Below, in pieces: positions 4,033-61,400 of a DNA stretch of 64,000 bases. Below the pieces are notes generated by a model. That model had not been told where the DNA came from, searched no databases, and saw only the letters and a program-made list of their open reading frames with translations. Source of the DNA: Cetorhinus maximus (Eukaryota); NCBI RefSeq assembly GCF_964194155.1, contig NC_135896.1:8246001-8310000 (forward strand). The letters run 5' to 3'. How positions within the stretch are numbered: position 1 is the first letter of the stretch; every line of letters begins with the position of its first letter. Made by a program: the position numbers and the translations under genes.

Positions 4033-4846
4033 TAACAAATACAGAGTTACCTGGAAAAACTCAGCAGGTCTGGCAGCATCGGTGGAGAAGAAATCAGTTA
4101 ACGTTTCGAGTCTTCACGACCCTTCAGCAGAACTGAAGCATAGTTAGGAGAAATGTGAAATATAAGCTGGTTTAAGGTGGGGGGGGTGGGGGGGGAGAGA
4201 AGTTGAGGGTGGGGTGATTGTGGAGATAAGCAAGCAGTGATAGGAGCAGATAATCAAAAGATGTCATAGACAAAAGGATCAAAGAGGTGTTGAAGGTGGT
4301 GATATTTGTCTAAGAAAAGTGCTAATTAAGAATGGAAGACAGGATACTCAAGGTACAGCTCTAGTCGGAGTGGGGTGGAAAGACTAACAAGGTTTTAGTT
4401 TTAGATTTAAAAATAATGGAAATAGGTGGGAAAAGAAGAATCTATATAAATTATTGAAAAAAAAGGGAGGGGGGAGAAACGGGGTGGGGATGGGGGGAGG
4501 GGGAGTTTAAGATCTAAAGTTGTTGAATTCAATATTCAGCCCGGAAGGCTGTAAAGTGCCTAGTTGGAAGATGAGGTGCTGTTCCTCCAGTTTGCGTTGG
4601 GCTTCACTGGAACAATGCAGCAAGCCAAGGACAGACATGTGGGCAAGAGAACAGGGTGAAGTGTTAAAATGGCAAGCGACAGGGAGGTTTGGGTCTTTCT
4701 TGCGGACAGACCGCAGGTGTTCTGCAAAGCGGTCGCCCAGTTTGCGTTTGGTCTCTCCAATGTAGAGGAGACCGCATTGGGAGCAACGAATGCAGTAGAC
4801 TAAGTTAGGGGAAATGCAAGTGAAATGCTGCTTCACTTGAAAGGAG
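4033..4846 (-). mobile_element. Penelope-like retroelement, 5'-truncated (GIY-YIG end plus 3' terminal region)
   Basis: ORF 4507-4854 NLVYCIRCSQCGLLYIGETKRKLGDRFAEH (GIY-YIG). Near-identical to 54921-55726. Direct repeat AGTAATACA at 4024-4032 and 4845-4853. Confidence 0.93.
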
Positions 4847-5519
4847 TAATACACAAGTTATGCAATCTGTAAAGTATCAAATCACCTGCAATTCTGTTCA
4901 TCTTGTACTCAATGGTATCATTCACAAATATTCATTATCCTATTCTCGCAGATTCTGAATGAATGTTGACACTTCATGGGAACATTTTAACTGGAGATTC
5001 TTAAATCAATTGTCTGTTTGTCAGAGTGAAATGTTAGGGGATGAAAGGTTTTCCGATGTTATCACCAAGCACACCCCATGTAGAGTGTAGTTCCTTGCAT
5101 CCTCTTTTGGTAATTGGAATTAAATTGCAATCTTACAGATACTACTAACTAAAGCAGGCATGTTGTTGTCAACTGCTGGCATGAGGTGGTAGTGCCATTA
5201 CAGTACCCGCTATGTAGCAAGAATGTGGTAGGTCAAGATTCTGTGCAATGCAATTAGCTTTATTTTAACTGCTGTCGGTGTTCAGTACAGACTGTAATCC
5301 CACAGCACTTTGAGGGGATTAGTAAGGGTTCAAGGTCACAGAAGTTAATTGAACATTACTCACGTTTGTTTTTGCATTCAATGCACCTTAAAGAGGTGGG
5401 AACTAGTGAGTGGGCACAGCCTGTCTCTGATCATGTTAATACAGATGCTCTAACTGACAACTTTTACACTGAGGTAATATAAATGGGGAATGGCTTTTGC
5501 TTGCATACCCAATATAAAG

Positions 5520-5900
5520 CTATGAGGGGCCTAGATAGAAGGATAGGCTGTGAGGTCAGTAACCAGTGGTCACAGGTTTAATGTAATTGGTGGACGGATT
5601 GGTGAAGGTTGCCGGGGTGGGGGGGGTGGGGGGTGGGGGGGATGTGGTGTTGAGGTGAAGCTTTTTTGACCCAGAGGGTGGCGGGGGATCTGGAACTTGC
5701 TGTCGGAAAGGGTGGAAGAGGCAGAAACCCTCCATCACATTAAAGAAAACACTCAGATGTGCACTTGAAGTGCTGTAACCTACAGGGCTATAGGCCAAGG
5801 ACTGGAAGGTGGGATTAAGCTGGATAACTCTTTTTCAGTCAGCACGGATATAACGGGCTGAATATCCTCCTGTGTTGTGAATTTCTTTGCTTCTACGATC
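5520..5900 (+). mobile_element. CR1 LINE 3' end fragment
   Basis: Degenerate CR1 ORF2 end and 3' UTR (gggctgaat..cctcctgtgttgt..tttct). Similar fragments at about 16235-16445(+), 29710-30660(-), 31390-31670(-), 32740-33275(+), 36940-37515(-) and 46665-47410(-). Confidence 0.75.
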
Positions 5901-6084
5901 CTATGGTAAGTGACTTCCTATTTTATATGAATGTTGTAATTGGTGGGGACTGCTCTAACAAACCTGTGAGCATCTTTGTACAAAGGTTCATTGCTGACGC
6001 TACACGTCTCAGTCCTGTTCTCTAATGAAACATTTTTTCCATGTCTCACACCAGCTGTTGAGTGGCCTCTCTGAACAAAATTAC

Positions 6085-6603
6085 TAATGTGATGGAATAC
6101 TCTTCACTTGCCTGGATGAATGCGGCTGGAACAACACTCAGGAAGCTCAACACAATCCAGGACAAGGCAGTCTGCTTGATCAGTACCCCACTCACCACCT
6201 TAAGCATTCATTCCTTCCATCTCAAGTTCCTTCCGCCTCACTGGCAGCAGTGTGCACCGTCTACATTACAAGATTCACAGCAGCAACTCACCAAAGTTCC
6301 TTCAACAGCACCTTCCAAACCCACGATCTCTACCACCTAGAAGGTCAAGGGCAGCAGGCACATGGGGACACAACCACCTGCAAGTTCCCCTCCAAGTCAC
6401 TCACCATCCTGACTTGGAAATATATCGTCGTTCCTTCACTGTCGCTGGGTCAAAATCCTGGAACTCCCTCCCTATCAGCACCGTGCGTGTACCTGTACCA
6501 CATGGACTGCAGTGGCTCACCACCACCTTCTCAAGGGTGATCAGAGATGGGCAGCAAATGTTGACCTTGCCAGTGACACCTACATCCCATGAATGAATAA
6601 AAG
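6085..6603 (+). mobile_element. CR1/L2-group LINE 3' fragment
   Basis: VMEYSSLAWMNAAGTTLRKLNTIQDKA...HHPDLEIYRRSFTVAGSKSWNSLP, tail catgaatgaataaaa. Same family at 14910-15250(-), 38990-39255(+), 41715-42000(-) and 59480-59790(-). Confidence 0.88.
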
Positions 6604-6918
6604 ATAGTTGCACTAATGAGCTGAATGGCCTCCTTCTGTGCTACATGATTCCAGTCGGAAGCATTGTTATGCTGTGGTAGCTGGATTGGGATCACTCGAG
6701 CTCATTTAAATTAGGCCTCCCTGTTCACCTTTCCCTATAGCTAACATTAATGGAGCCGTTTCAATGTCTCTTTGAACTGAGCACCACATTATGACAAATG
6801 AGCCATTTCGTAATAACACAAATATCTCTCATTTTTTTTCATTGCTAACTGCTACAGCACTTTTGGTCACTAGTTAACCTTCAAGTCTAAAAATACCTCT
6901 TTGCCCCCCAGTCCACAG

Positions 6919-8329
6919 TTACAGTTCACTCACTTTACAACCTCTGGCAATTGCCACTGTTTGCCGGCAGTTACTGTAGTGTCGGTGAGGGCCGCAAGAG
7001 AAGTGATTTGTGTTGGTGAGGTTCAGTGGTGCCCCTCTGCCACCCCGGTTCCCAGAAAAAATGCTGCTGTTCTTTACAGAGATGGTCTGCCCCCGGTAGA
7101 GCTGGGCCCGGCGTTGGCAGAGGCCCACCTTGCTCAGCAAGATGAAGACATCACGGCGGAAAGCCTTGGTGAAGATGACGTAGAGGAAAGGGTTGGCACA
7201 GGAATTGAGCGGGTAGAAGAGGACCAGCAATATCTTGGAGTTGGTCACGGTTATCAGCGGCTTGTTCAAGATGGCAGACAGTGCGTAGAAAGAGATGGGG
7301 GCCATGCAGGTGAAGTCAGTGAAGATCAACACGGCCATCCTTTTGGCAATTTTTGTGTCTTTGCTGCCGGATTTGTAATGTGGGTTCTTCACGGTGACGT
7401 AGATCTTGACGTAGCAGGCACAGATTATGATGAACGCCAAGATGTTGGCCAACAGAACCAAAACGATGTAGCCCTGAGCCAACCGGGACTCTGTATCCAT
7501 GGGCAGGCAGATGCTAACCTTAATGTAGCTGCTTACTCCTGCAATGGGCAGAAGTGCCAAGGTGAAGCAGAACACCCAGCCTCCCACCATAACCATGGCG
7601 GCATGTCGAAGCCGCATCTTCCTGTCTAACCGCATGGCGAAGTTGATGGCGTACCAGCGCTCCAGCGTGATCACGGTAAGAGTGTAGACCGAGAACTCAC
7701 TGGCAAAGACGGTGAAGAATCCAGCAGTATTACACCCTGGCCCTGTCTGCCAGTCTATGGCATAATTGTAATACTCGGTTCTGGTGTAGAGGTCCACTGA
7801 GGCAATCAGCAGTAAGTAAATGCCCATGCAGAAGTCTGCCACAGCCAGGTTGCACATCAGGAAACGAGGGACAGTGAGCTTGTAGTGACTAGTCAGTAGA
7901 ATCAGGAGCACAAAAATATTGCCCAAAATGGCCAACAGATTAACAAACCACACGATAATTCTCAAAGAGTCATAACCCATAATGTCCTCGCAAGGGTTGA
8001 ATTCATCAGGCTCTGGTTTGCATACAATCTCCTCGTTGCCTCCGCACACCATGTAATCATAATGATTGTCAAAGGCTTGAACATGGTCCTCTTGAGGGTT
8101 CTTCAACTCTTGGCCAAACCCAATATCTCCATCTCCTTGTTCCTCAAAGAACACATAATAGTGGGAGTTGCTATGGAAATCTCTGAGCTTTGAACCCTGG
8201 TCAGAGGTGTGACCTGCGTTGTCATCCTCAGCATAGTTATGGTAAAATGGCCCATTGTATAAACTGAAGGATCGTTTCTGCCTGAGGCGATGACCTGTGG
8301 TTTGGTTGCACATTATTGACTCTAAAAGC
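6919..8329 (-). CDS. TSHR: Thyrotropin receptor exon 10 (hinge, 7TM domain, C-tail, stop)
   Basis: Acceptor ccctacag|G at 8329. Translation [10 protein letters not shown]...HYYVFFEEQ...[11 protein letters not shown]...YDY...[10 protein letters not shown]...ERWYAI...[18 protein letters not shown]...NPFLY...SEL*. It contains the TSHR-specific hinge insertion absent from FSHR and LHCGR. Confidence 0.98.
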
Positions 8330-8544
8330 CTGTAGGGTAAACTGAAGACCGAAAAGACAGATTATAGATCATAAAATATTGGGACAATATTTATTGAAAT
8401 AATTAAGACGAGTGTTTCAGCATCACTGTGCTGAATTCAGGACTCAGCATGTTTTCCCCTATTGTAACTCTTCCTTAATGACTGACAACCAGAACTCCCT
8501 CTTATTTTCCTCAGTCTTCCTTTCTGCCTGAAATCTATAGGCTA

Positions 8545-9140
8545 TGGGTCTTGATTTTAAAATTCTCACCCCTTTTTTCAAATCCCTCCATTGCCTCGGC
8601 CCTCTCTATCCCTGTAACCTCCTCCAATCTTACAACCCTCCGAGATATCTGCGTTCCTCTGCATCTGTCCTCTTGTGTAGACCCGATTTTAATCACTCTA
8701 TTATTGGCGGCCGTGTCTACACCCGAAGTCAGTGTTCCTCAACCAGGTTTCCCCGGTACTCACGGATTCCCCGAACTTCCCTAAAGGGTTCCGTACAATT
8801 TTCAGATCATTTCAAGATATATTGTTCTTCCAGTTAATGAAAAATAATCATTTATTCATTCAATAGTATTATAATTTGTTTTCGGGTTCCACAGAATTTC
8901 ACAATATATTATAGGCTTCCTTAACCAAGAAAAGGTTGAAAACCACTGCAAGTTCTGGAATTCCCTCCCCAAATCTCTCCTCCACTTTACTTCTCCCTCC
9001 TCATTTAAGACATTCCTAAAACCTATCTCTTTGACCAAGCCTCTGTTCATCTAACCTAATATCTCCTTATGTGGTTCAGTGTCAAACTTGGTTTGCTAAC
9101 GCTCCTGTGAAATGTCCTGGATGTTATACTGTGTTAAAGG
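8545..9140 (+). mobile_element. L2 LINE 3' fragment interrupted by a MITE
   Basis: FKILTPFFKSLHCLGPLYPCNLLQSYNPPRYLRSS is a typical L2 ORF2 C-terminus. Related pieces at about 20835-21000, 35030-35300(-), 37520-37830 and 41455-42155. Confidence 0.75.
8730..8948. mobile_element. hAT/Charlie-type MITE
   Basis: TIRs cagtgttcctcaacc / ggttgaaaaccactg (CAGTGGTTCTCAACC-type). It splits the L2 fragment. Confidence 0.7.
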
Positions 9141-9391
9141 TAAGTTGTTGTTCTCTTGGCTCAGTACCACGTCAGGTACTACATTTAACCCCTGAACAAC
9201 AATCTCAATCTCATTCATTCACCCCTCGCTCTCTTGAGGTCAGCAGGCTTCCCCACTATGAAACTTTGACTTAGCGGCGCACTAAAAAATTTTATTTTAT
9301 AAAATATCATTGGTGGATTTCAGTACCCGGAATCCCAGAGAAAGATCTTCACCCAATTTGTCCTGGCTTTCTTCATGGGGCACTGACTCAC

Positions 9392-9580
9392 CCTTTGTTT
9401 TTCTTCCAGTTCTTAAAAGCACAGCAGTGGCTTGGGTACGTGAGGTCAGCTCTCATTAGGTGAAGGAAAGTCTTCAGAGGAGGGAGCTTCTTCAATGTCC
9501 ATGTGTTCTTTGCCATTAATTCCTTCAGCGGTTCCAGCCCTTTGCTGGGAAGGGAGTGGACACTGGACTGGGATACATCA
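9392..9580 (-). CDS. TSHR: TSHR exon 9 (189 nt)
   Basis: ctcacag|T...AAAGG|gtgagt; [63 protein letters not shown]. Confidence 0.97.
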
Positions 9581-10324
9581 CTGTGAGCAGGAGAGACCAA
9601 TATTGTGTTATAAGGCCTAACTCCAAGTCATCTGAATTGACTGGCCACTCTCAAGATTAAATCAAACCATTTGATAAGGGGGTGAGTTATCAACCCTTGT
9701 AACCATAGCAATGCAGAACTGACCCCAGCGCCCCCCCCCACCCCCCCCTGCCCACCTGCCAATTTAGGTAAATACCAGCCCCTGCCCCAACCAAATCCAT
9801 GTTCCTGGATCAGGGACATTTCCATGAGGTAGGTGGGATGCTCACATCAATTGGGGCACAGCTGGGGCTGTCCACTAGACTGGGAATTGGGAAAGGGCGA
9901 GTCAGGGAAGCTGTTGAAATCGCAGCATTGGCAGGTGCCCACCAGCCTGGGGTACCTGGTGGGGTCTATCCCAATGCCACCTTTCCGAAGATCTCCCTGC
10001 CTGTGTCGGTGGTGTGTACAGAGTTGCTGGGAATTCCAGAGAGTGAGTCATCCTGTCAGTCCTGTCTCCCTCTGAGATACCAGTGCTAAAGCAGGTGGAC
10101 AACGACGTTGCCCATACTGCCCCTTCCCCCCCCCCTACCAATACCCCACTTCTCCAGGGAAACCCCAGGACATCTCCAATACATAGCGGAAACTCAATGT
10201 AACAAGATAATGCCCCAATTTTTCACCCCCAACTGCTACTACGGTGCCTCAAATGCCCACCAAAAACATTCACTGTTACTCGCTGAAATTGACCAGCTTG
10301 CCTGTTTCACAGATGATTGTTGTG

Positions 10325-10850
10325 AGGGGTGATGGGGGTGGAGGGCAGGTGGGGGGGTGATGGGGTGTTGAGGATGTTGAGGGTGAGGGGCTAGGGGTGG
10401 TGGGGTGTTGGGATGTTGGGGGTAGGGATGTTGTGGGGTGGGGGGCTGGTGGGGGATGGTGGAGTGTTGGGGGTGGGGTGATGGAGGTGGGGGATGTTGG
10501 GGGGCTGGTGGGGGTTGGTGGAGTGTTGGGGGTGGGGGGCTGGGGGTGGTGGGGTGTTGGGGGGTGGAATGGTGGGGGGTGGTGCGGTGTTGGGGGTGGG
10601 GGGCGTGGGGTGTTGGGGATGGGGTGATGGGGGTGGGGGATGTTGGGGGGCTGGGGTTGGTGGGGTGTTGGGGGGTGGAGTGGTGGGGTGGTGGGGGGTG
10701 GTGGGGTGTTGGGGGGGTGGAGTGTGGGGGTTTGTGGGGTGTTGGGGGATGGGGTGATGGGGGTGGGGGATGTTGGGGGGTGGGGAGCTGGGGGTGGTGG
10801 GGTGTTGGGGGGTGGGGTGATGGGGTGATGTGGGTGGGGTGTGGTGGGGT
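10325..10850 (+). repeat. G/T-rich degenerate tandem array in TSHR intron 8
   Basis: Recurrent ggggtgttgggggg / tggggtgatggggg / gctggggg units with almost no C or A. Confidence 0.93.
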
Positions 10851-11310
10851 TGTTTTGACTTTGCTTTCAGGGTGTAAAATAGATGATATTGAGTCAACTC
10901 CTCTTGCTACACCCCTCTCTCTCCCACTTTTAATTCCCGTCGCAATGAAAGGCTATGTCAGGTAGCACTGGCTTCGCTTGGCAGTCATTGCAGAAACGTT
11001 TCCGTTGGGAGATCACATTCAGAACAGAAATAACATACTGGCAAACCAATCAACGCAGATCTCCAACACCCCATGAACCCCCGGATTTCTCCTGAGGGAC
11101 CCACCACCCCCTCCTCCCGAATGCCTCACGCTGACCAATCATTTGAAAACCTGTGCGCAAAAACTGGCACCATTTGGTCAGCCATTTGCAATGCTTGTTT
11201 GTACATTATACATTCCGCTTTTGTCTTCTCGAAACTTTCCCAAGACTAAATCAATCTCAAACGTCACTTTTAATAGGTTCTTGTGGGAGTACTGACTGGA
11301 AATTACTTAC

Positions 11311-11388
11311 AGCAGAGTGGGTCCACTCAAGGCTCCTGTGAAGACATCTTCACTGAAGGATGTCAAGAGCTTATTCTTGTGCAGGTAA
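11311..11388 (-). CDS. TSHR: TSHR exon 8 (78 nt)
   Basis: ttaacag|T...CT|gtaagt; YLHKNKLLTSFSEDVFTGALSGPTLL (human [26 protein letters not shown]). Confidence 0.96.
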
Positions 11389-15366: not shown

Positions 15367-15681
15367 AAAAGCAAAAAACTGCGGATGCTGGAAATCCAAA
15401 ACAAAAACAAAAATACCTGGAAAAACTCAGCAGGTCTGACAGCATCTGCGGAGAGGAACACAGTTAACGTTTTGAGTCCGTATGACTCTTCAACAGAACT
15501 AAGGAAAAATAGAAAAGAGGTGAAATATAAGCTGGTTTAAGGGGGCATGGAACATGTAGAGCTGGATAGAGGGCCAGTGATAGGTAGAGATAACCAAAAG
15601 ATGTCATAGACAAAAGGACAAAGAGGTGTTGAAGTTGAATTATCTAAGGAATTTGATAATAAAGGTACAGATAGCCCTCGT
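15367..15681 (-). mobile_element. Penelope-derived terminal fragment inserted in a Deu SINE
   Basis: Homologous to the 4040-4360 terminal region. 13-bp TSD ATATTATTAATGT at 15354-15366 and 15682-15694. Confidence 0.85.
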
Positions 15682-17370: not shown

Positions 17371-17511
<141 letters not shown>

Positions 17512-23665: not shown

Positions 23666-23743
23666 AGAGTTAGTGATTCATTGGATAACCCACCAAAGGC
23701 ATTTGCAGGGATGGTTGAAATGAAAGGATTGTCAGCGATTTCT
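23666..23743 (-). CDS. TSHR: TSHR exon 6 (78 nt)
   Basis: tttacag|A...CT|gtaagt; EIADNPFISTIPANAFGGLSNESLTL. Confidence 0.97.
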
Positions 23744-29616: not shown

Positions 29617-32168
29617 CTGAAATCAGAGCAGAAAGGTTTGACATTAAAACTTTTTACTGGAGCCCAGTTTTAAAGTTTATTTCTTGTCTGCAAACACATT
29701 TTACATAGGATTATAAATACAGCATAGGAACAGGCCATTCAGCCCTACCAGTCCATGCTGGTGTTTATGCTCCACTCGAGCCTCCTCTCATCTTCCCTCA
29801 TCTAACCCTACCATCTTAACCTCCTATTCCCTTCTTCTTCATATGCTTGTCTAGCTTCCACTTAAATACATCTATACTATCCACCTCAACCACTCCCTGT
29901 GGTAGCAAGTTTCACAATGTCACCATTCTTTGGTAAAGGAGTTTCTCCTAAATTTCCTATTGGATTTCTTGGTAACTATCTTATATTGATGACCACTAGT
30001 TATGCTCTTTCCCACAAGTCGAAACATTCTCTCTGTATACACTCTATCAAAACCTTTCATAATTTTAAAGACCTACTAGGTCATAAGAACACGCGAACAT
30101 ATGAACAAGGAGCAGGAGTAGGCCATTCAGCCCCTCGAGCCTGCTCTGCCGTTTAATAAGATCATGGCTAATCTGATGGTAACCTGAAATCTGCATCCCG
30201 CCTACCCCTGATAGCTTATCATCCCCTTGTTTACCAAGAATTTATCCACCTCTGCCTTAAAAATATTCAAAGGCTCTGCTTCCACCACCTTTTCAGGAAG
30301 AGAGTTCCAAAGACTCACGACCCTCTGAGTGAAAAAAATTTCACCTCATCTCTGTTTTAAATGGGTGACGCCTTATTTTTAAACAGTGACCTCTAGTTCT
30401 AGATTCTTCCACAAGGCGAAATAACCTCTTGACATCCAACATGTCAAGGTCTTATATGTTTCAATAAAGTCACCTCTTACTCTTCTAAACTCCAACAGAT
30501 ACAAGCCTAACCTGTCCAACCTTTCCTCATAAGACAACCCACCCATCCTAGGTATTAGTCAGGTAAACCTTCGCTGAACTGCTTCCAACGTTCTTTATTC
30601 TTCAAGAAAAGAGAAGAGACCAAGCTTGTCAATCCGTTCCAAATATGTATACCCACGTATTTCTGGTATTATCCTTATAAAATCTTCTCTTTGCCCTCTC
30701 CAGTGCCTCTATATTCTTTTTATAAATATAATAGCCAGAACTGCCAAGATTTGACACTGGCTTTGTATAACTTCCCTACTTTTCAACTATATCCCTCTAG
30801 AAATAAGGCCTAATGCTTTGTTTGTTTTTTTTTATGTGCTAACCTGTGGTGCACCCTTTTAGTAATTGATGTATCTGTATTCTTGAGATCCCTGTGCTCC
30901 TCTACCTCACCTAGACTTGCATCTTCCAAGTAACGTGTGACTTCCCTGTATTGGTAACTTTGATGACAAATGCAACACCAACCCCCACCCCCCGCCCCCC
31001 ACCTTGCCCCCCACCGCCCCTTTGGTAAATGCTTGGAGGAGGAATGAAAGAATGAGTTTGCATTAACATAGCGCCCCTCATAACCTCAGGATACCGCAAA
31101 GTGCTTTACAGCCCATGAACCTGTTTTGAAGTGTAGTCACATTTGTAATGTAGGGAATGTGTAAAATGTCCATGACATCTTTGCTAAATCTCTCCTGAGC
31201 TCCCATCTATCCCTGACCTTCTATTTTGCTCCACCTGCTCCATCCCCTCTCAAACAGTATAAAATCCATCATGTTTCTACTTCTCTTTAGCTTTGAAGAA
31301 GAGTCATACGGACTCGATACGTTAACTCTGTTTCTCTCACCATAGATGCTACCAGACCTGCTGCGTTTTTCTAGCATTTTCTGTTTTTATGACAGAAGGA
31401 TCTATTTGGTCCATCGAATCTGCACCTCTTTTGAAGAACAAGCTATGTTCATCCCATTCTCCTCATATCCCTACAATTTTATCTCCTACAAATAATTATC
31501 CAATTCCCTTTCAAAGCTACTATTGGATCTGTATCCACCACCCTGTCACACAGTGCATTCCAAATCCTAATCACTTGTTAAGTAAAAACAGATTTTTCCT
31601 CATGTCGCTTTTGGTTCTATTGCCAATCACCTTAAATCTGTGCCCTCTGGTTATCAACCCTTCAGGCATTGGGAAAATGCCCAGGGCAGGAATTGATCCT
31701 CACAGAGGGATTTGTATTTACCTCTGTGAGGTTGCCTCCATCTTGAAAAGCCCCCATGATCACCAACCTGCCTCAGCAGCAACCACCTCTCGCATTGGGG
31801 CTGTGGAGGTTTCAGAGCTGCTATCCCTCTGACCGGGCCAGTTAGGAGGTGTTCTGCACTAAAATCATCGAGTTGGTCCTGCTGCCGGCAAGATCCACTC
31901 TTTGGCCCTCTGTCTCTATTTCCATTTAAGCCAGGACTAGAACTCAAGGTAGGTCAGGTCGGGGCCATCACCAAATGCATAACTACACCCCATAAAGGTA
32001 CAGTGAAGAGGCCAGCATGGCAAAAACACACTGCCTTTAAAGACCAAGCAAAGTTGCAATGCATTATGACCATTATGCAGTCAATGAGGAGGGCTTCCCT
32101 TTCCCCAGAAATATTTACCACCCAATTATCTATTACACAAGCATTCATTTTCGTTTTGCTGTACTCAC

Positions 32169-33691: not shown

Positions 33692-33784
33692 AAGGGTCAT
33701 GAGGACTCGAAACGTCAACTCTTTTCTTCTCCGCCGATGCTGCCAGACCTGCTGAGTTTTTCCAGGTAATTCTGTTTGTGTTTT
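33692..33784 (+). mobile_element. Very short Penelope 3'-terminal insertion
   Basis: Nearly identical to the reverse complement of 54921-55009. TSD ATACAAG at 33688-33694 and 33785-33791. Confidence 0.85.
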
Positions 33785-35744
33785 ATACAAGAAACACTGC
33801 TACTTAAAACCCAGCCCAGCAGCATAACAGAGTGTCCTTTCAAACAGACTGAGGTTGGATGTTCATGCCCCACCACTGACACCTTTCACGACCTCGACAC
33901 ATCCCTAGTTACTTTGCAGCCGCTTTTGAAATGTAGAATACACTTGAAATGAAGTGATACAAATATGGTAACTTGTGTTAGTTCTAAATAGGGCCACGAG
34001 TGATAACTTACCCACGGCGGCAGGTTGACTGAGTTCAGCTAATTCGCTTTTTTTTCCTTATTCTCTCATGGGAGGCGAGTGTCACTGCCAAAGCATTTGT
34101 TGCCCATCTCTAATTGGTCTTGAACTGAGTGGCTGCTAGGCCATTTCAGAAGAGGGCAGTAATGAGTCAATGACACTGCTGTGGGTCTGGAGTCATGTGT
34201 AGACCAGACCGGGTAAGGATGGCAGAGTTCCTTCCCCAAAGGACATTGGTAAACCAGAAGGATTTTTATGACAATCAGTGGTAGTTTCATGAGACTAGCT
34301 TTCAATTCCAGATTTTGTTAGTTGAATTTAAATTCCAACATCTGACATGGTGGGATTTAAGCCTGTGTCCCCTGGGCATTAGCCTCTGGATTACTAGGCC
34401 AGTGACTTTACCACGATACCATCCTCTCACTTAGAATGAGCGTGCCTCCTATTAGCCCAGCATGGAATAATACTAATTGTTTGCTGATTTCAGCAAAGGT
34501 TGAAGAAACTGATTTAATTGGTCAATGTCCAGATGTAATAAAAGAAGGACTCCCTCCATTTAATTGTAATTTGAAAATCCTTAAATTTATCGGCGATACT
34601 TTGATCCAACTACTAAGCCAGATCTTTGGAGATCCTCCTTCCCAAAGTTGTCCCCTCTCCTCCTGTCACTGACAATGACTGCCTGAAGTTGATTAGGGTG
34701 ACACATAAAACAGGCAACATGATCCCACGCTGTTTGCTCTGTGACTGAACTCTTCTAAATCATGAATGGCAAAGTCAGGAAGGAGCAGAGAAGAACTGTG
34801 TATTGCCACCCCCCTACCCTCTCCATTACCCTGCATTCTCCCACCATATCGCTGTCTAACACAAGTAAGGGTCAATTATCTCAGGTCAGGTCCCCTTGCA
34901 AACTAATCCTATCCTCCAAGTGCAGCTTGAACTATAATTCATAACCACACCGTTTTTGACTAAATTGGCTTTAATTGTTAAAACCAAAGTATTTGATCAT
35001 TTCAGTTCCGCTGCAATCTATGGCCTGCTTATTTAACAACAAAAACTTGCATTTATATAGTGCTTTTAACATGGTAAAACAATTCAAAGTGCCTAACGGG
35101 AGAGTTATCAGAAAAAAATTAACACCAGGCCACTAAGGAGATATTAGGACCTGTGATCAAAAGCTTGCTCAGAGACGTAGGGTTTGAGAAGCATCTTAAT
35201 TAATGGAGGAGAGAGAGGTAGAGGGATGGAGAGGTTTAGGAAGGGAATTCCAGAGCTTAGGGCCAAATTAGCTGAAGGCAAGGCCACAAACGGTGAAGCA
35301 GATTCAGAATAGAGGCTTCACTCTCACACCTCCAAATTAGAAAGTTGTGGGTTCAAATCGCACTTCAGAATGTGAGTACATTGATCTTGGCTGACCCTTC
35401 AGTGCTGTAGTGAGGGAGTGCTGCAGTGTCAGAGGTCATGCTTCGGAGATAAGATGCTAAGTTGAGTTCCTGCCCTCCTGTTCCAGTGATTGAGGTAGAT
35501 CCCACTGAGTCATTTGAAGAAGAGCAGGGATTTCTTCCTGGTGTCCTGGCCAACTTCATTCCTCGGTCAACATTGTCAGTAAAACAGATTAACTCATCAT
35601 TCATCTCATTGTTCTGAGTGGCATCTTGCTGAGCACAGACATGTAAAAGTAACACAAGGTGTGAAACACTTAGCGATGTTTCTGACCAATGTAATCATGC
35701 AAAATAAATCTTTCTACATTTAAAAAAAAATTTTGACTAAAACA

Positions 35745-40826: not shown

Positions 40827-40898
40827 ATCCTTGAAATGTTTGGGAGCTTTGTAAAAGCTTCAGTGGGAATTGTCTTGAGTTGAGTCTCCATGAATCGG
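40827..40898 (-). CDS. TSHR: TSHR exon 2 (72 nt)
   Basis: ttttgacag|C...AT|gtaagt; RFMETQLKTIPTEAFTKLPNISRI (human [24 protein letters not shown]). Confidence 0.96.
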
Positions 40899-46897: not shown

Positions 46898-47114
46898 AAG
46901 ATGACAGCAAAATACAGCAGACGCTGGAAATCTGAAATAAAAACAGAAAATGCTGGAAAAATTCAGCAGGTCTGGCAGCATCTGTGGAGAGAGAAACAGA
47001 GTTAACGTTTCGAGTCTGAAGAAGAGTCATACGGACTTGAAACGTTAACTCTGTTTCTCTCTCGACAGATGCTGCCAGACCTGCTGAGCTTTTACAGCAT
47101 TTTCTGTTTTTATT
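46898..47114. mobile_element. Palindromic Penelope-terminus insertion
   Basis: Arms 46934-47016 and 47035-47116 are reverse complements. 13-bp TSD TCTATCTAACTCA at 46885-46897 and 47115-47127. Confidence 0.88.
47012..47051 (+). ncRNA. Minimal type I hammerhead ribozyme motif
   Basis: CUGAAGA-A-GAGUC(auacg)GACUU-GAAAC-GUU matches the hammerhead core CUGANGA/stem II/GAAA/NUH. Stem I is weak in this copy. Confidence 0.65.
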
Positions 47115-49544
47115 TCTATCTAACTCAGCCTTAAAGATATTCTATGACCCTGCCTCCACTGCTGTCCGGGAGAGAATTCCACGGACTAACAAACCTCAGA
47201 GAACAAACTTCTCATCTCCACCTTAAATGGAAGACCGCCTAATTTTCAAAACTGTGATCTATAATTCGAGTGTTTCCCACAAGGGGAAACATCCTCTCAT
47301 TATCCACCCTGTTACGTCCACTCAGAATCTTATGTGTTTCAGTAAATTCATCTCTTTCTTCTAAATCCCAATGGTTACAGGCCCAACCTGTCCAGCCTTT
47401 CCACATAAAATAACTCCAATTTTCTTCTCTGTATTTTTAAAAATCTGTGGCCTAGCCCCATATCCCTTAATATCTTTGGTTAACAAAAATCTACCAATCT
47501 CATGTTTAAAATTAACAATTGATCTAGTCTCACTTTATCTTAGACCAACAGCATTGTGGTTGCAATTATACTTCCTTGTGTGAGGTGATGCAAACTGAAC
47601 ACAAATCAAAATTGGTGTGTAGAGGTGTTTCATAGTTGTGGGTTCAAGCGCCATACCAGAGATTTGTGCATATATCTTCGCTACTTTAGAGAAGAGCAGG
47701 GGAGTTCTCCATCATGTCGGTTTTAAATCCTAAGCTTGATGCCTTAGTGACTGATTGGAGATCTATTTTCTTTCAAATCACATAAAGTGCAATACTTCTA
47801 ACGTTTTCAATGAGAATTTGGGATACCTAGTGACCATATACAATTCATCCTTTAACAGAGTTGCCAACTGTGATTAAATGTGTTCCTGGAGGCTTCATCA
47901 CATGACTTGCCTCCACACTCCATGCATTAGTCGGCCAACACATCCATCCTTGTGATGTACTGCCTTCCTACACCAATTGGAAAGCAAAAAGACTTATTAT
48001 TTAATTGGATGATGCTTGACTGTCAGCCAAACAGTCTTTTCTCCCCCCCTTTTGCAATATGTTTATATCTGGTAAAGAGTGTTCAAAGAAAATGACAAAA
48101 AAAACCCCAATCTCTTTTGATGTTCCAATGATTTTTCTCCAGGATTGTACACAGCAGTGTCCTGGAGATTGATCTTCAATTCCTGGAGACACCTTAACCA
48201 ATCATTTATTCATGCACTCACCCTCTCACTAACGTTCAAACTGTACACTTAAATTTACCATACGGCAGATGGTGCCGTAAAAGGGGGGCTTGTCCTATCT
48301 TCCCCCGGCTCCACCTCGCTTCGATGGAGCTCTCCGCATTGCTGGAGAAGCCAGACTCGGAGGGTCCTGGAAGAAATGCAGAGCAGCATTGCATTGGGGG
48401 AGTTTTCAAGTGGAGCAGCAATGAGAAGATCCAGGCCAGCATCTTATAAATCCATCTGAGAGAACAGACAGGGCTCAGCGTAAAACCTCAACTGAAAGAC
48501 AGCACCTTTGACAGTGAAGCAGCGCCTGGCTTTTCTCTCACGTCTCTGGAGTGGGTCATGAACCCACAACCTTCGGGCTCAGAGACAAGGGTGCGACTGA
48601 CTTCAACCACAGCTGCACACAGTGCACGTAAACCTCAGAAGATACTAAAGTTAAGGTTTAATTTAACTCCTCTAGCTATCAAACAAAACTCCCATTTTAC
48701 ATGTGACTTTGTGAAACAGGAGGGCCATTATGAACTTGTACAAATGCTTGAAAAGTCTAACGTGTGGCTTTTGTTTAGGAAGAGCAGCTGGAATGGACAT
48801 GGGAGAGAAAGGGACAAAAGCTGAGCACACTTATCAGGCGGATAACTTAATATACGGACCTCCCGAATCAGTTCTCAGCAGATTCACTGTGTTAATCTTG
48901 TGGGAGATTGGAGGCTGGGGGGACATGGTTAGGGTGGGAGTATTCAATATTGCCTCAAATACATCTGTGCAGTACTAATAGTATAAACGATGCTCACGAT
49001 CGAATTTCCTAAAGTCCTTTCCTAAAGCGCAGTAACTGAGCAATGAAGTAACTGACCATGTGAATAGGATCTTCATGTTAGTCAAGCCTGAGCTCTCTTA
49101 TTTATAGCCTCGAGGTGTTTTTGAACGCGACTGTGCGTTGACCATTCCTTGCCCTCCTTCTGCTGGTGATACCAGTTTCTTGGTGTGTGGTGTGCTTTCA
49201 CAAACAGGGGAGACTAGGCCACCAATTACAAAACATTCCTTACTCCTGATGGTACCTTTCACTTTCACTATTGCTGTGTATAGTCACAGGGATGGGGGTG
49301 GGGGGAGCAGGTCCAGAGTCTCAACGTGTGGCTTTTACTATAAGAAGGGCACAAAGTGGCGTGTTTTAAATCTCTGTTGCTTGCCAACATAAAAAGAATG
49401 GCTGCACTTGAAAGTAATTCATTGGTTAGGAAGCACCTTGGGATATTCTGAAGACATGGTGAGGCACTACCAGTGAAACCTGTTCTTTCTTCCTGTGTCT
49501 CCTTCCCTCCTGTCTCTCCTTCCCTCCTGTTTCCCCTTCCTTGA

Positions 49545-53819: not shown

Positions 53820-54979
53820 GGTAATAAATACCAAGTGAAGCTGATGTAATCAGGAATTCTCTCTTTTAATTAGAAGAGTTTGTGTAGACCTCAATCTTAT
53901 CAGGCAAATGAAAGAAGTCGATCAGCAAGAACGCAAGGGTGACTTTAGAAATGAATCCTTGAAATTATCCAACTGAAATGAAGATCCGGATTGCAACTTC
54001 AGAGCTGACCTTTTTGACACTCTTCACAGAGACCGAGAGTCCAGCTGTTTGGCAGGAGGACGTCTAGGAAGGGGGAGGTCCACCCACTTACAATGAAGGT
54101 ACAGTGAAAAGATCAGACCAGAAAAAAACACGAGAATGAGAGTGATCACTCACCGCTCTGTAATATTTCTCAAAAGTGGAAGAACTGGTGATGAAATACA
54201 CTGTTCAAATACTACACTCATCCAATAGTGGTGATCTTCTAGAAAGTACATCTACACCTATCCATCCACCAAAAGTGATCCTCTAGGAGGCTAGCAGTCA
54301 AAGAAGTTAAAAACTAGACATGGAACCAGGCCATACAATGTCTGCCTTTTCTACATGGGACGAAAATGAACTTATTGATAAACCAGGTGTGCTGGATCTT
54401 GAGGGAAACCAAGACATTGATCAAGTGGATCCCCCACAGTGCCCATCCTATCCAAAGAATTACTTCCCAGGATAGAAGTCCAGGACTATCCGAGAGTTCC
54501 GGAATGAGAGACGTCAAGGAGTCATCGCTCCAGGAATAAGGAAGGACAGAAAAAGACGAACAAAGGAAAGAGGGCAAACTGAAGAAGCAAGGATAGGGGG
54601 CATGTGCAATGCAAAGAGAGAGATAAACCTGCAAAATCAAATAGAGAGGGAAATGTGGTCATGAAAAGTATAACTGTAAAGAGAGGAAGAAATGGATCAA
54701 GTCCAGATCCAGAATTCAGACCAAGGGAAAGAAGAAGTAATAGTCCAAAGAGATAACAATCACCAAAGGCCTATTTAGTACATACTTTAGAAGGTACTAT
54801 ACATAGAAACCAGAGGAATTTTATTTCTATTCATCAAAGACGACAATCATTTGGAAGAACCAGATGTTAAGTCAGAAATTAATAAAGAACCAGATACTAT
54901 AACACTAAATGAAGACCACGCAAAAACAGAATTACCTGGAAAAACTCAGCAGGTCTGGCAGCAACGGTGGAGAAGAAAA

Positions 54980-55019
54980 GAGTCGACGTTTCGAGTCCAC
55001 ATGACCCTTCAACAGAACT
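54980..55019 (-). ncRNA. Minimal hammerhead-ribozyme motif (variant core) in the Penelope terminus
   Basis: Minus strand agtt-CUGUUGA-A-GGGUC(augug)GACUC-GAAAC-GUC-gact. Confidence 0.6.
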
Positions 55020-55385
55020 GAGTATAGTTAGGAGAGGGGTGAAATATAAGCTGGTTTAAGGTGGGGGGCGGGGGGAGAGAAGTTGAGGGTGGGGTGGTTG
55101 TAGGGACAAGCAAGCAGTGATAGGAGCAGATAATCAAAAGATGTCACAGACAAAAGGATCAAAGAGGTGTTGAAGGTGGTATCATCTAAGAAAATGTGCT
55201 AATTAAGAATGGATGGCAGGACACTCAAGGTACAGCTCTAATGGGGGTGGGGTGGAAAGACTGACAAGATATTAGTTGTAGATTTAAAAATAATGGAAAT
55301 AGGTGGGAAAAGAAAAATCTACATAAATTATTGAAAAAAACAAAAGGGAGGGGGAAGAAACGGGGTGGGGATGGAGGGAGGGAGT

Positions 55386-57512
55386 TTAAGATCTAAAGTT
55401 GTTGAATTCAATATTCAGCCCGGAAGGCTGTAAAGTGCCTAGTTGGAAGATGAGGTGCTGTTCCTCCAGTTTGCGTTGGGCTTCACTGGAACAATGCAGC
55501 AAGCCAAGGACAGACATGTGGGCAAGAGAACAGGGTGGAGTGTTAAAATGGCAAGCGACAGGGAGGTTTGGGTCTTTCTTGCGGACAGACCGCAGGTGTT
55601 CCGCAAAGCGGTCGCCCAGTTTGTGTTTGGTCTCTCCAATGTAGAGGAGACCGCATTGGGAGCAACGAATGCAGTGGACTAAGTTAGGGGAAATGCAAGT
55701 GAAATGCTGCTTCACTTGAAAGGAGTGTTTGGGCCCTTGGACGGTGAGGAGAGAGGAAGTGAAGGGGCAGGTGTTGCATCTTCTGCGTGGGCATGGGGAG
55801 GTGCCATAGGTGGGGGTTGAGGAGTGGACCAGGGTGTCCCGGAGGGAATGATCCCTACGGAATGCCGTCAGGGGGGGTGAAGGGAAGATGTGTTTGGTGG
55901 TGGCATCATGCTGGAGTTGGCGGAAATGGCGGAGGATGATCCTTTGAATGCGGAGGCTGGTGGGGTGATAAGTGAGGACAAGGGGGACCCTATCTTGTTT
56001 CTGGGAGGGAGGTGAAGGCGTGAGGGCAGATGCGCGGGAGATGGGCCGGACATGGTTGAGGGCCCTGTCAACGACCGTGGGTGGAAAACCTCGGTTAAGG
56101 AAGAAGGAGGACATGTCAGAGGAACTGTTTTTGAAGGTAGCGTCATCAGAACAGATGCGACGGAGGCGAAGGAACTGAGAGAATGGGATGGGGTCCTTAC
56201 AGGAAGCGGGGTGTGAAGAGCTGTAGTCGAGGTAGCTGTGGGAGTCGGTAGGCTTGTAATGGATATTGGTGGACAGTCTATCATCAGAAATTGAGACAGA
56301 GAGGTCAAGGAAGGGAAGAGAAGTGTCAGAGATGGACCATGTGAAAATGATAGAGGGGTGGAGATTGGAAGCAAAATTAATACATTTTTCCAGATCCCAA
56401 CGAGAGCATGAAACAGCACCGAAGTAATCATCGATGTACCGGAGAAAGAGTTGTGGGAGGGGGCCGGAGTAGGACTGGAACAAAGAATGTTCCACATACC
56501 CCATAAAGAGACAGGCATAGCTGGGGCCCATGCAGGTACCCATAGCCACACCTTTTATTTGGAGGAAGTGAGAGGAGTTAAAGGAGAAATTGTTCAGTGT
56601 GAGAACAAGTTCAGCCAGACGGAGGAGAGTAGTGGTGGATGGGGATTGTTCGGGCCTCTGTTCAAGGAAGAAGCTAAGGGCCCTCAGACCATCCTGGTGG
56701 GGGATGGAGGTGTAGAGGGATTGGACGTCCATGGTGAAGAGGAAGCGGTTGGGGCCAGGGAACTGGAAATTGTTGATCTGACGTAAGGTGTCAGAGGAAT
56801 CACGGATGTAGGTGGGAAGGGACTGGACAAGGGGAGAGAGAAGGGAGTCAAGATAACGAGAAATGAGTTCCATGGGGCAGGAACAGGCTGACACGATCGG
56901 TCTGCCGCGACAGTTCTGTTTGTGGATTTTGGGTAGGAGGTAGAAGCGGGCCGTCCGAGGTTGGGCAACTATCAGGTTGGAAGCTGTCGGAGGAAGATCT
57001 CCAGAGGAGATGAGGTCAGTGACAGTCCTGGAAATAATGGCTTGATGTTCCGTGGTGGGGTCATGGTCCAGGGAGAGGTAGGAGGAAGTGTCTGCGAGTT
57101 GACGCTCAGCCTCCGCGAGGTAGAGGTCAGTGCGCCAGACAACAACAGCACCACCCTTGTCAGCGGGTTTGATGACAATGTTGGGGTTGGACCTGAGAGA
57201 ATGGAGTGCAGTAAGTTCAGAGAGAGACAGATTAGAATGGGTGAGAGGAGCAGAGAAATTGAGATGGCTAATGTCACGCCGACAGTTATCAATGAAAAGA
57301 TCAAGAGAAGGTAAGAATCCAGAGGGAGGGGTCCAGGTGGAGGGAGAATATTGGAGGTGGGTAAAAGGATCCGTTGAACGGGGAGAGGACTCCTGCCCAA
57401 AGAAGTGAGCACGGAGATGAAGACGGTGGAAGAAGAGTTCAGCATCGTGCCGAGCCCGAAATTCATTGAGATGAGGGCGTAAGGGTATGAAACTAAGTCC
57501 TTTGCTGAGCAC
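55386..57512 (-). CDS. Penelope RT + GIY-YIG endonuclease ORF (708 aa, uninterrupted)
   Basis: IKPADKGGAVVV, FYLLPKIHK, DVQSLYTSIP, GVAMG, RYIDD, LPFLD and C-terminal CIRCSQCGLLYIGET...RFAEH...GLN. Confidence 0.92.
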   Translation of the reverse strand: MLSKGLSFIPLRPHLNEFRARHDAELFFHRLHLRAHFFGQESSPRSTDPFTHLQYSPSTWTPPSGFLPSLDLFIDNCRRDISHLNFSAPLTHSNLSLSELTALHSLRSNPNIVIKPADKGGAVVVWRTDLYLAEAERQLADTSSYLSLDHDPTTEHQAIISRTVTDLISSGDLPPTASNLIVAQPRTARFYLLPKIHKQNCRGRPIVSACSCPMELISRYLDSLLSPLVQSLPTYIRDSSDTLRQINNFQFPGPNRFLFTMDVQSLYTSIPHQDGLRALSFFLEQRPEQSPSTTTLLRLAELVLTLNNFSFNSSHFLQIKGVAMGTCMGPSYACLFMGYVEHSLFQSYSGPLPQLFLRYIDDYFGAVSCSRWDLEKCINFASNLHPSIIFTWSISDTSLPFLDLSVSISDDRLSTNIHYKPTDSHSYLDYSSSHPASCKDPIPFSQFLRLRRICSDDATFKNSSSDMSSFFLNRGFPPTVVDRALNHVRPISRASALTPSPPSQKQDRVPLVLTYHPTSLRIQRIILRHFRQLQHDATTKHIFPSPPLTAFRRDHSLRDTLVHSSTPTYGTSPCPRRRCNTCPFTSSLLTVQGPKHSFQVKQHFTCISPNLVHCIRCSQCGLLYIGETKHKLGDRFAEHLRSVRKKDPNLPVACHFNTPPCSLAHMSVLGLLHCSSEAQRKLEEQHLIFQLGTLQPSGLNIEFNNFRS

Positions 57513-57938
57513 TGAATGTTCAGCATCGGAGAGGGGAAGGTCAGGGGGTAGACTGATCTTCCAAGTCTGACAAGAACACGATCAGGGGGAGTTGTGAAGT
57601 CACCTGACAGATTGAACCTGTGATGTCAGAGACTTGGCAGGGGAGATGGGTTTGTATGTAAATATGGAAGTAAAAAATATTCATGGAGACTTGAGGGGAG
57701 ATGTAGTACTAGGTTTGTAACGGTTAATGTGTGGGACTGTGTAAATAGCATCCCCCATAATAAAGATATAAGAGGCACATGACTAAGAGTCTGAGAAGGA
57801 GAATGTTCATGGCTTCAGCAGTGTATCACCTAGTTAAGGATAGCTATATATAGTTTAGAGCATAAAACAAACCAGTTGTTGCTTGAACACACCAACATCT
57901 CAGTAATCATTCCGAAACTAGACTAACCAACATATAAT

Positions 57939-58473
57939 AGATTTTACGCCCTGAGCCGAGCATGGTTTTGGCAAGGTGTGCGCATAAAATACAATGGGTA
58001 GCAAGCCCACGACCTTCCCGCCCAGCCCCCACCCCAGTCTCCAATATAGGAGAGGTGGGTCAGTGCCAGAATTGGCTTCCCATTCGCCATATTTAAATAA
58101 ATAACTAAGGGTCAATTGAGCTTGATAACAGCTCAGTTGACCTGTATGATATGCTGCTGTGCCATAACACAGCTGGCAATGGGCAGATGAGTGAGAGTGG
58201 ATAGGCCATTTAAAAAAAAATTGTGAAGGAAGGTGGGGGTACATCATCATGTCCCCTGTGCACACCAGGGGCACCACCCTAAGATGTTAATCCCTCACTT
58301 TGTTCTTCCCTGCCTGACTTCCAAAAATGTACCCTTCCACCCCCCCTGGTCCCCCTCCCTGGGCTCACTTGGGTCTGGGCACCATGGCTGCCTTCCTTGT
58401 GGGGCTACTTGCAGTCCCAGCAGCGCCCATTACTCCGCCTTGATGCTGTCCATCCCCCCATAAATTCCAGCCC
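57939..58473. mobile_element. MITE-like element whose left TIR was split by the LTR element
   Basis: Removing the LTR element restores ggggctgagattttac..., which pairs with ...cataaattccagccc at 58459-58473. Confidence 0.65.
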
Positions 58474-61400
58474 AGTATTTATTCTGGAATTATTAGGTGT
58501 GAACTGAATTTTTTTTAAAGGAATGGTCAGTCCTCAGAGATTAACTCCAACAGAGAACAAGCATTTGTCAGGTAAGGGTGAAAAGTGAAATGGACTAAAG
58601 GCAAGTAAATGGAGTTAAGGTACAGATCAAGGGGCTGAATGGCCTGTTACTATTCCTATGTTTCTATTCCTGGAGCTCATGGCTATCTAAGAGTTACAGA
58701 TGATAGATATACAGAATATTCTGATCTTCTGTCTTTGCGACAAGCTTTGCCATTGAGCTAGCAACATTTCTTGCATTTTTTGGCATTCATTTAGCACGCA
58801 GGCTTCACCTATACACCTGCCAAGATGAATAACACACTTTCTGATTTTCTAAAGAAGGAGTATAATTTCTGAGCCACTGCCAGGTCGACGACCCCTCATC
58901 AGAGCAATACCAATGCTGACTTCAAACACAAGATGGTGACGAACAATGTGCAAGCGAACGATAGTTGAATTGTTAAGATTCACGTAAGAGAGTCATCATA
59001 AAAGAAAAATACTGCAGACGTTGGAAACCTGAAATAAAAACAGAAAGTGCTGGAAAAACACAGCAGGTTTGGCAGCATCTGTGGAAAGTGAAACAGAGTT
59101 AATGTTTGAATTGAACATAACTGCTCTTCAGAACTCTTCCTCTTAATATATTTTCTATGAGAGTTATCACCCTGCTTTACCTCGAACAAATTCATTTGGG
59201 CCCTTAGAAAAAGTGCTTGACTTACAGGCCCAGTTGCATGAGGCGACTGAGAACATTTGGGATTTGCTGCTTCTCTCCGTGGCCAGCTCACCTGTCGAGT
59301 TTGTAATGGGGCTGTAGAACTCAAGTCACAACCATTCCAGTTTTTGATTATCTGGACCGGTTTTCTCTTGCCCCAAGTTACCCCACCCCACCCCACCCCC
59401 CCACCAAACAATTCCGCTTTGCTTTGGACAAAGGCGTCTGGCCTGACAAAATTATCCAGAGAGGAACAAATGAATGAAGATTTTTTTTATTTATTCATGG
59501 GATGCGGGCATTGTTGGCTCAGCCAGCATTTATTGGCCCGACTCTAATTGCCCTTGAGAAGGTGGTGATGAGCCGCCTTCTTGAACCGTTGCATTCCATG
59601 TGAGGTAGGTACACCCACAGTGCTGTTAGGAATGGAGTTCCAGGATTTTGACTCAGTGACAATGAAGGAACGACAATGTGCTTCCAAGTCAGGATGGTGT
59701 GGTGGCTTGGAGGGGCACTTGAAGGTGGTGGTGTTCCCATGCATCTGCTGCCCTTGTCCTTCAAGGTGGTAGAGGTCACGAGTTTGGAAGCTTAGGCTGA
59801 CATTTGAATCTGTAACCACTTGGATTGGGATTCCAGCTTTATTCCATTGTCGGAGCCACTGGGCTGAGTTCTAGGTATGGTAGATAACTCAGAGATTCGA
59901 CTAAATTCAACCCTGTAAGATGTAGGATGGAAAGGCACCGATGCAGCCCTAATCCTTATATGGTTCGGGTCCTCAGTGAAGTACTTAAATAATGTAATTC
60001 ATTTGTACTTCAGTGCCTGTAAAGTAGGAATAGTGTGTTGGTTTGTAATTTTAATACAATTTTAATTCAACATTACCCTTCTTTTAATCTCCTGACCACC
60101 TTCTGAATTTGTTTGCCTATTTTTGTTACTATATGATTGTTATTTGTTTGCATGTTTTCAGCCTGATTACTTAGTCTATATGTGAATTTTTCAATGTAAG
60201 TCACACTGCAATTCAGACTTTGGGTTGTGAACATGTGGAAATACCATCACCATTGTCATTATTATTATTATCGTTTTCATTGTCTACGCTCTCGGTTACT
60301 GCAACAAATATTATGGGTTTAAGTTCCACTATGGACGACCACATAATCACAGCTGAAAAGTTGTTTTTTTTTGCATAAATCAAGGCCCCTTTCAGGAGAA
60401 TGTACAAGATCCCAGGGCAGTATTTTGAAGAGGAACAGCTGAATTCTCCCCCTGGTCAATATTTATCCCTCAACCAATATTACTGAAGCAGATTATCCAG
60501 CCATTTGAGGGTTGTCGCTGATTAAAAATTGACTGCTGCATTTCCTACATTACAATAGTAACTACACTTCAATGGCTTTAAAATGTATTTTTTTCCTGAA
60601 GTGAATTAAAATGCTTTTCCCATTTTGGCATGTGTTTTAAATGTTGATTTTCTGATATGCGGTGCAACAGCTAAGGTGAATGTGTTAAATGTAATAGCTT
60701 TAGATTCCCTCTTTGGGATACAATCCTCAGACGAATTATCTGGTTATTGGATCTATTTCTTGGGGAACTTGCTGATCGAAAATTGGCTTCCCTGTTTGCC
60801 TACGTTACAACTGTGACTACACTTCAAAAATAATTCATGGGGCTGTAAAGTGCTTTGGGTTGTTAAAAATCATTGCTAAGTGCAAGTATCATGAGTCTTC
60901 CCTTTAAATATGAATCAGTAGCACCCCCCAGTGATCTGTATTTACAGAGGCATCTTTAGTGGTGGCGTGCTCTGTCTAAGGGAGCACTGGTATGGATATG
61001 TTTCTTATTCGTTCATGGGATGTGGGCGTTGCTGGCTAGGCCAGTATTTATTTCCCGTCCCTAATTGCCCTTGTTCAGAGGGCATTTTAAGAGTCAACCA
61101 CATTGCTGTGGGTGTGGAGTCATATGTAAGCCATGTATGTAAGAACAGCAGATTTCCTTCCTTAGAAGACATTAGTGAACCAGATGGGTTTTCAGCACAA
61201 TCAGCAATGGTCTCATGGTTATCATCAGACTTTTTAATTCCAGATTTTTATTGAATTCAAATTTTACCACCTGCTGTGACAGGATTTCAAACCTGGGTCC
61301 CCAGAGCATTACCCTGGGTCACTAGAATACCAGTACAGCGACAATACCACTATTCCACTACTTCCCCCTAAAACAGAGTAATGAATATAAATGTCCTTAC

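Follow-up and report, generated by a model that had tools for sequence, protein, structure and literature searches.

Minimal hammerhead ribozymes have been described in the terminal repeats of metazoan Penelope-like elements (PMC4209133), and their role in these elements has been described as unclear (PMC8557442). Two other systems bear on the family reported here. Phage Bcep176 carries a natural hammerhead with C instead of A at core position 6 (A6C), which cleaves slowly in Mg2+ and better in Mn2+ (PMC3088659, PMC7151607), and the hammerhead of the anole element Poseidon cuts only together with its protein (PMC11167929). The stretch of DNA analysed here, called the window, comprises 64,000 nucleotides of the shark Cetorhinus maximus (NC_135896.1, positions 8,246,001 to 8,310,000; positions below are those of the window) and lies across the thyrotropin receptor gene TSHR. 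Seven hammerhead motifs had been listed in and next to this gene by a sequence-only reading, and all seven were found again at their coordinates and strands. They are confirmed as hammerheads of the minimal type I, carried by the ends of a Penelope-like element of the Neptune type. In this family the A at core position 6 was replaced by U and then by C, while the rest of the core stayed constant and the element continued to amplify.

Copies were counted in the genome with a 30-letter degenerate pattern in which positions 6, 7, 10.2 and loop II were free. The pattern gave 48,897 exact matches and its reversed control 0. Position 6 is A in 11,476 matches, U in 26,744, C in 10,078 and, by subtraction, G in 599; U and C together account for 36,822 of the 48,897 matches, and the consensus A6 is met only in older subfamilies. 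A second pattern with C-G at the stem II pair 10.4-11.4 gave a further 10,801 matches, of which 99 among the 100 listed carry C6 and one carries U6. These counts are limited to one pattern family, and older A6 families with other stems exist. A related older family, common and found near the window (for example at L186, L191 and L207), has a canonical A6 and an A-U pair at 10.1-11.1.

The order of the changes is seen in the subfamilies, which take in 198 of 253 copies, the other 55 lying outside any named group. A tree of the last 600 coding bases, in the endonuclease region (67 of 70 distinct rows, three being dropped as not collinear), is ladder-like under a midpoint root and a bootstrap that had not settled (0.954); A6 and early U6 copies lie outside a 52-row clade (100/99) that contains U6 and C6 only and no A6. 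Median divergence from the majority of the own group is 3.7% in A6, 1.8% in early U6, 0.9% in later U6, 1.2% in C6 and 0.5% in the youngest C6 copies. The subfamilies are of age A6 > U6 > C6, and position 6 changed from A to U and then to C. Between early U6 and the youngest C6, pN/pS is 0.33, with 17 synonymous changes in 138 sites. All 12 open reading frames (ORFs) of at least 780 amino acids carry U6 (2) or C6 (10), in a sample drawn with a U6 query.

The sequence-only reading had proposed, from the two youngest copies, that C or U at position 6 plus an extra A after A9 may form a lineage-specific variant core. At the level of the lineage U6 and C6 are borne out in the younger copies by genome counts, tree and divergence. 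Strict specificity is not, as U6 also stands in the loose-end consensus of a second organism, C (38 contigs); the spacer of the youngest copies is covered in organism A and has no cover in organisms C and D. The extra A was rejected as a new feature: it is also present in the A6 subfamilies, and is ordinary because a base standing between 9 and 10.1 is given as conserved in PMC4209133. In the oldest A6 subfamily, to which L102 and L030 belong, stem I mostly contains a C-A mismatch, and this too may have been a weakened ribozyme, by another route. Two other accounts of the altered core were rejected. On inspection, moving the core register by three bases would put two unpaired bases ahead of G12 and does not work for the G10.2 subfamilies, and loss of A6 to remove an upstream AUG does not fit the AUG present at +51 in 4 of 5 representatives, nor the new upstream AUG in loop II of later subfamilies.

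After the loss of A6, none of the 15 other core sites varies among seven subfamily majorities, against 84 of 203 sites in the untranslated region (UTR; Fisher p=6e-4); the spacer (13 of 24), the linker (6 of 15) and loop II (4 of 5) are likewise variable, and the comparison with neighbouring sites (23 of 44) gives p=1.6e-4. The core consensus (C3, U4, G5, G8, A9, G12, A13, A14, A15.1-U16.1 and H17) is invariant in 7 of 7 majorities that follow A6. Positions 6, 7 and 17 all vary among the majorities, 17 between U and C only, and G17 occurs in just one of the 198 grouped copies. G8 is mutated in 367 copies, in scattered haplotypes none of which is dominant, against 33,858 intact ones. Two CpGs lie within the bases of G8, G12 and the palindrome, which stayed fixed. 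Pairing is kept at 4 of 4 variable stem positions, and stem I lengthened from 4 to 6 pairs in the C6 subfamilies. The compensatory stem changes that had been named as a test of the motifs were found at pair 10.4-11.4, which is U-A in 48,897 matches, C-G in 10,801, U-G in 859 and C-A in 869; the U-G matches listed include a recurring C6 haplotype, and the C-A matches are spread across subfamilies.

The earlier attribution to Penelope-like elements is supported by the ORF of the family, by its tandem pseudo-long terminal repeats (pLTRs) and by the layout of the hammerhead. A 731-aa frame matches the reverse transcriptase (RT) family RVT_1, and GIY-YIG is matched by a near-identical 116-aa end fragment (4507-4857). 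Complete copies elsewhere in the genome have a 917-aa ORF between two hammerhead regions about 3.29 kb apart. RT and C-terminal GIY-YIG thus stand in a single ORF, as in Penelope-like elements with an endonuclease (EN). Partial pLTR-ORF-pLTR tandems are represented by nine same-strand repeat pairs with a spacing of 3202-3305 nt, inverted 5'-truncated copies by 33 head-to-head pairs among 257 insertion events, and the tail extension typical of Penelope-like elements is present in loose ends. The hammerheads have the minimal type I form, with stems I and II, G10.1-C11.1, an extra base after A9 and a palindrome in place of stem III. A search of Rfam returned no hammerhead family among seven matches at E up to 10, all of them hairpin-type chance matches. 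The translation contains the motif C-x4-C-x2-C between RT and EN. A C-x2-5-C-x2-C motif in this linker is tied to Neptune, and Nematis also has a linker motif (PMC8557442); the assignment to Neptune is by this motif and is to that extent provisional. The interval G000:C7:136,637,000-136,650,000 (L211-L214) holds four ORF starts that match the query at 100% and belong to the youngest subfamily, arranged as two tandem units per orientation, and this is a candidate recent or source locus. A different repeat (7 copies, 5' boundary +29) shares the downstream tail, has its own upstream sequence and no hammerhead, and joins the tail two bases before the predicted cut.

Transcription likely starts four bases before the core, with a promoter upstream. 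Counted from the A four bases upstream of C3, a TATA-like word lies most often at -29/-30 in 8 of 9 subfamilies; in the ninth it is found at -29/-31 in 6 of 28 copies, most of the 28 being stumps. The 5' ends of copies were collected as 257 insertion events, that is 290 of 384 copies at no less than 90% identity with 33 inverted pairs merged, the 94 copies under 90% being dropped. Thirty-nine events start at -4..-1, whereas the 40 bases further upstream account for 24 (0.6 per base). The counts come from chosen loci, a choice that leaves the comparison with upstream bases unaffected and affects that with downstream bases; the unbiased subset has only 28 events, of which 2 start at -4..-1 and 1 at +31. 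Since the short stumps pile up at -4..-1, they look like copies of the 5' end of an RNA. The ORF-linked 5' ends are distributed otherwise. Among 67, including at least two pairs that are one place seen twice, 40 extend beyond the TATA word. Of the others, single ends fall at -4, at about -19 and at +33, 3 fall within the core region and 21 lie further in. ORF-bearing copies appear to derive from templates longer than a unit, by way of a circle, tandem read-through or template switch. The deepest contig of read run X14, which is RNA by guess, begins one base before the predicted start and leaves the upstream word uncovered; it is not counted as support, contigs being unable to show a start. The tail of U6 and C6 subfamilies has a splice-donor-like site (window 54930-54935, minus strand) that is absent from the oldest A6 subfamily. 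No spliced copy was found, and L048, a candidate with a deletion of about 89 nt, was rejected for lack of a clean GT-AG junction.

An amplifying Neptune-type lineage thus swapped A6 for U and then C with the other core bases and both stems kept, and, judged from these comparisons of sequence, there is about an even chance that its hammerhead survives as a selectively kept, slowed, probably dimer- and protein-dependent self-cutter. An element RNA starting four bases before the core would carry the ribozyme and the downstream tail at both of its ends, the tail being the likely start of reverse transcription. Fast cutting at the 5' copy would remove the cap, and at the 3' copy would part the ORF from its copying start, so that a weak core may be favoured, as we propose. 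Occasional cutting at both copies would give unit-length RNA able to circularise, which could template longer-than-unit, promoter-bearing insertions.

Several observations weigh against this slowed self-cutter. Almost as little variation is seen in the tail (1 of 28 sites) as in the core, so constancy of the core need not reflect catalysis. The subfamily majorities stand on one ladder and are not independent, the compensated change in stem II is one evolutionary event counted many times, and the long-ORF sample has the U6 query as a caveat. For the segment -6..+40 alone, stems I and II are predicted with probability mostly >0.8 in the 4094 copy and the youngest C6 copies, and <=0.08 in the 54980 copy. 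With 140 nt of downstream context, predicted stem I pairing is <=0.14 in 13 of 13 copies, and the palindrome-paired active dimer is the cofold minimum in 0 of 6; a protein would have to help, as that of the anole element is reported to do (PMC11167929). Copies do not pile up at the predicted cut: 1 of 257 events lies at +30..+32 and 1 of 28 in the unbiased subset, most loci having been chosen for an intact core, by which copies starting at the cut are under-sampled, and 1 of 67 ORF-linked ends lies at the cut. At locus L059 the two repeats belong to different subfamilies, an arrangement more easily explained by template switching or tandem read-through than by a single circle. In an engineered ribozyme A6C has a more than 10,000-fold cost in Mg2+ relative to Mn2+ (PMC7151607), a cost that would add to an already weak minimal form. 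The anole element inserts in vitro without need of cleavage, with no RNA reads ending at the cut (PMC11167929), and Naiad elements thrive without hammerheads (PMC8557442).

The alternative that survives best, possible and less probable than the slowed self-cutter, is that the motif no longer cuts and is kept at the transcript start as a protein-bound RNA hairpin, as part of the core promoter, or as both, position 6 having become free once catalysis was dropped. The missing genomic footprint of cut RNA and the conservation of the tail agree with it, as do an initiator-like word that overlaps the 5' strand of stem I where the 5' ends pile up, the internal promoter of Drosophila Penelope (PMC2377424) and the dispensability of cleavage in vitro in the anole element (PMC11167929). 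It does not account well for the choice of positions that changed, namely 6 plus the consensus-free 7 and 17, with G17 almost excluded; G8, G12 and the palindrome stayed fixed despite their two CpGs, stem I grew in the C6 subfamilies, and a compensated RNA pair is unexplained by a DNA promoter.

Gating is a further possibility. The stepwise passage from A6 through U6 to C6 may have tuned a switch at the first RNA bases, by which protein or Mn2+ triggers cutting of both ends and yields a circular template for new promoter-bearing masters; this seems unlikely, and if true, standard CUGANGA searches would miss some 47,000 variant hammerheads in a single genome. Its mechanistic premise, which is quite unlikely, is that the U6/C6 core is nearly off in Mg2+ alone and on with Mn2+ or the element's own protein, with cutting timed after translation. 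C6 shifts two other hammerheads towards Mn2+ (PMC7151607), protein assistance has been shown in the anole element (PMC11167929), and C6 spread in the youngest subfamilies together with stronger stems. Against this, the Mn2+ shift is documented for C6, and U6 came earlier and is commoner; cellular Mg2+ is far above Mn2+, as the authors of PMC7151607 concede, and A6U came without a partner change, the two majorities differing only there around the core.

Neutral decay, in which a single master copy lost A6, the loss spread by hitch-hiking and the rest is too young to have decayed, is already disfavoured and considered very improbable. One dominant lineage can bring any change to high copy number, and early U6 and the youngest C6 are only modestly apart in coding sequence (17 synonymous changes in 138 sites); the unchanged core (0 of 15 sites, against 23 of 44 neighbours, p=1.6e-4), the pairing kept at 4 of 4 variable stem positions and the absence of an amplified G8 mutant speak against it.

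The weakest alternative, that sense copies cut or regulate the TSHR pre-mRNA, has three intronic copies and a partial one in sense to recommend it and is hardly credible, since these comprise one with G12A, one degenerate and one partial copy, stem pairing in the best of them (54980) is predicted at <=0.08, there is no intact partner on the same strand nearby, and sense and antisense copies in the introns (4 to 3) show no bias. The sense orientation of the intronic minus-strand copies, as earlier noted, is correct, and its importance for TSHR is not upheld, the copies being G12A, degenerate or predicted to misfold. The copies in the window are passive insertions, cutting of the TSHR pre-mRNA is unlikely, and for TSHR biology they are probably irrelevant.

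The copies in the window have flanks common to all, with 74-94% identity, and are one repeat family rather than chance occurrences. The core consensus is fully kept only by those at 4094, 54980 and 47012. The hammerhead at 4094..4136 (minus strand) has a C6 core, a 6-bp stem I and U17 (C3 at 4130, predicted cut after U17 at 4100). It belongs to a young 3' fragment (4036..4857, minus) with the end of the GIY-YIG domain, 3' UTR, hammerhead and tail, 93% identical across 817 nt to the element at 54921. The predicted start A at 4134 is preceded, about 30 nt upstream, by a TATA-like word with a putative promoter role (4160..4165, minus). The longest family copy (54921..57556, minus) has an open frame with an RT match and includes the U6 hammerhead at 54980..55019 (minus; C3 at 55015, predicted cut after C17 at 54985), whose 4-bp stem I includes one G-U pair and for which misfolding is predicted; its TATA-like word (55044..55049, minus), which would have the same promoter role, precedes the predicted start A at 55019 by 29-30 nt. 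An older U6 pLTR fragment (15402..15664, minus) contains the hammerhead 15462-15500, predicted to be dead because of G12A, in sense within the intron between the 17371 and 11387 exons. The old A6-subfamily fragment at 31207..31389 (plus, antisense to TSHR) has a damaged core (motif at 31289, with C3U and A14U) and a canonical TATA box, which precedes the predicted start by about 31 nt. A short stump at 33692..33787 (plus, antisense) runs from A9 onward with the tail and without the 5' half of the core. The A6-subfamily stumps at 46934..47116 form a head-to-head inverted pair, of which the member at 47011-47116 (plus) has an A6 core and the one at 46938-47018 (minus) is a partial, eighth copy absent from the earlier list; the motif at 47012 (plus) has A6 and a stem I broken at the inversion junction. 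The old degenerate A6-type stump at 59035..59136 (minus, sense, intron 1) starts at the predicted transcription start, and its motif at 59096 is degenerate with a broken palindrome. Head-to-head pairs, both this one and the 33 among the 257 events, have their junction in or just before the hammerhead, and they form long perfect-looking hairpins with chance matches to miRNA in Rfam.

The host gene TSHR lies on the minus strand, with 92% identity to a named shark thyrotropin receptor and TSHR as the best solved-structure matches of its product. Nine of the ten expected exons were placed, and exon 5 was looked for and not found. Exon 1 (65940-66119) is just beyond the window, the last coding exon is at 6919..8340, and the others are at ~9391-9600, 11300-11387, 17371-17439, 23665-23751, 32168-32242, 36632-36706 and 40826-40897, all on the minus strand. 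Six of the seven originally noted motifs are in introns, those at 15462, 54980 and 59096 in sense, and the 4094 copy is 2.8 kb beyond the stop codon. The introns also contain a 28-bp tandem array and a G-rich low-complexity tract (12464-13700 and 10330-10870), and intron 1 has LINE-type RT fragments in both orientations (43700-44770, 49585-52750).

What appears to be new is the U6/C6 core in an otherwise known minimal Penelope hammerhead, the extra A being already known. Literature searches (Penelope/shark/hammerhead, A6U/A6C and variant core words) found the variant undescribed, though Lunse et al. 2017 may list such variants, and the two supplements of PMC4209133 that were searched gave no match. 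The family is a dated natural series from A6 through U6 to C6 in elements that went on amplifying with intact ORFs, and whether cleavage matters, and how slow it may be, is testable on three real alleles. Should the U6 and C6 ribozymes prove to cut, genome searches based on the core consensus overlook the majority of this genome's hammerheads; should they prove inactive, a ribozyme fold has been kept under selection after catalysis was lost.

With the minimal hammerheads of metazoan Penelope-like elements (PMC4209133) the family shares the type I layout with no real stem III and a palindromic 15.1-16.1, the extra base between 9 and 10.1, G10.1-C11.1, the location in pLTRs and the thousands of solo copies. 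It differs in position 6, where about 80% of matching copies, the youngest intact elements among them, have U or C, whereas U3-A8 is the only core variant named in the available text of that work, and in copy number, with about 60,000 exact matches against 4,000-9,000 for coelacanth and Xenopus. The Anolis Poseidon element PAc (PMC11167929) likewise has pLTR-ORF-pLTR tandems, RT with a C-terminal GIY-YIG, and a tail with an internal start of reverse transcription downstream of the hammerhead. In PAc the ORF starts inside stem II, here 184 nt after C3; the RT-EN linker here has the Neptune-type cysteine motif, and the available text mentions no position-6 variant for PAc. Transcription probably starts within the pLTR, as in Drosophila virilis Penelope (PMC2377424), where the promoter is TATA-less and internal, while here a TATA-like word stands, throughout the subfamilies, 29-31 nt from the putative start. 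The natural C6 is shared with phage Bcep176, a single, active phage ribozyme with no dimer partner reported (PMC3088659, PMC7151607); in the shark, C6 was reached via U6 and became fixed in an amplifying vertebrate retroelement, within a minimal frame of the dimer type.

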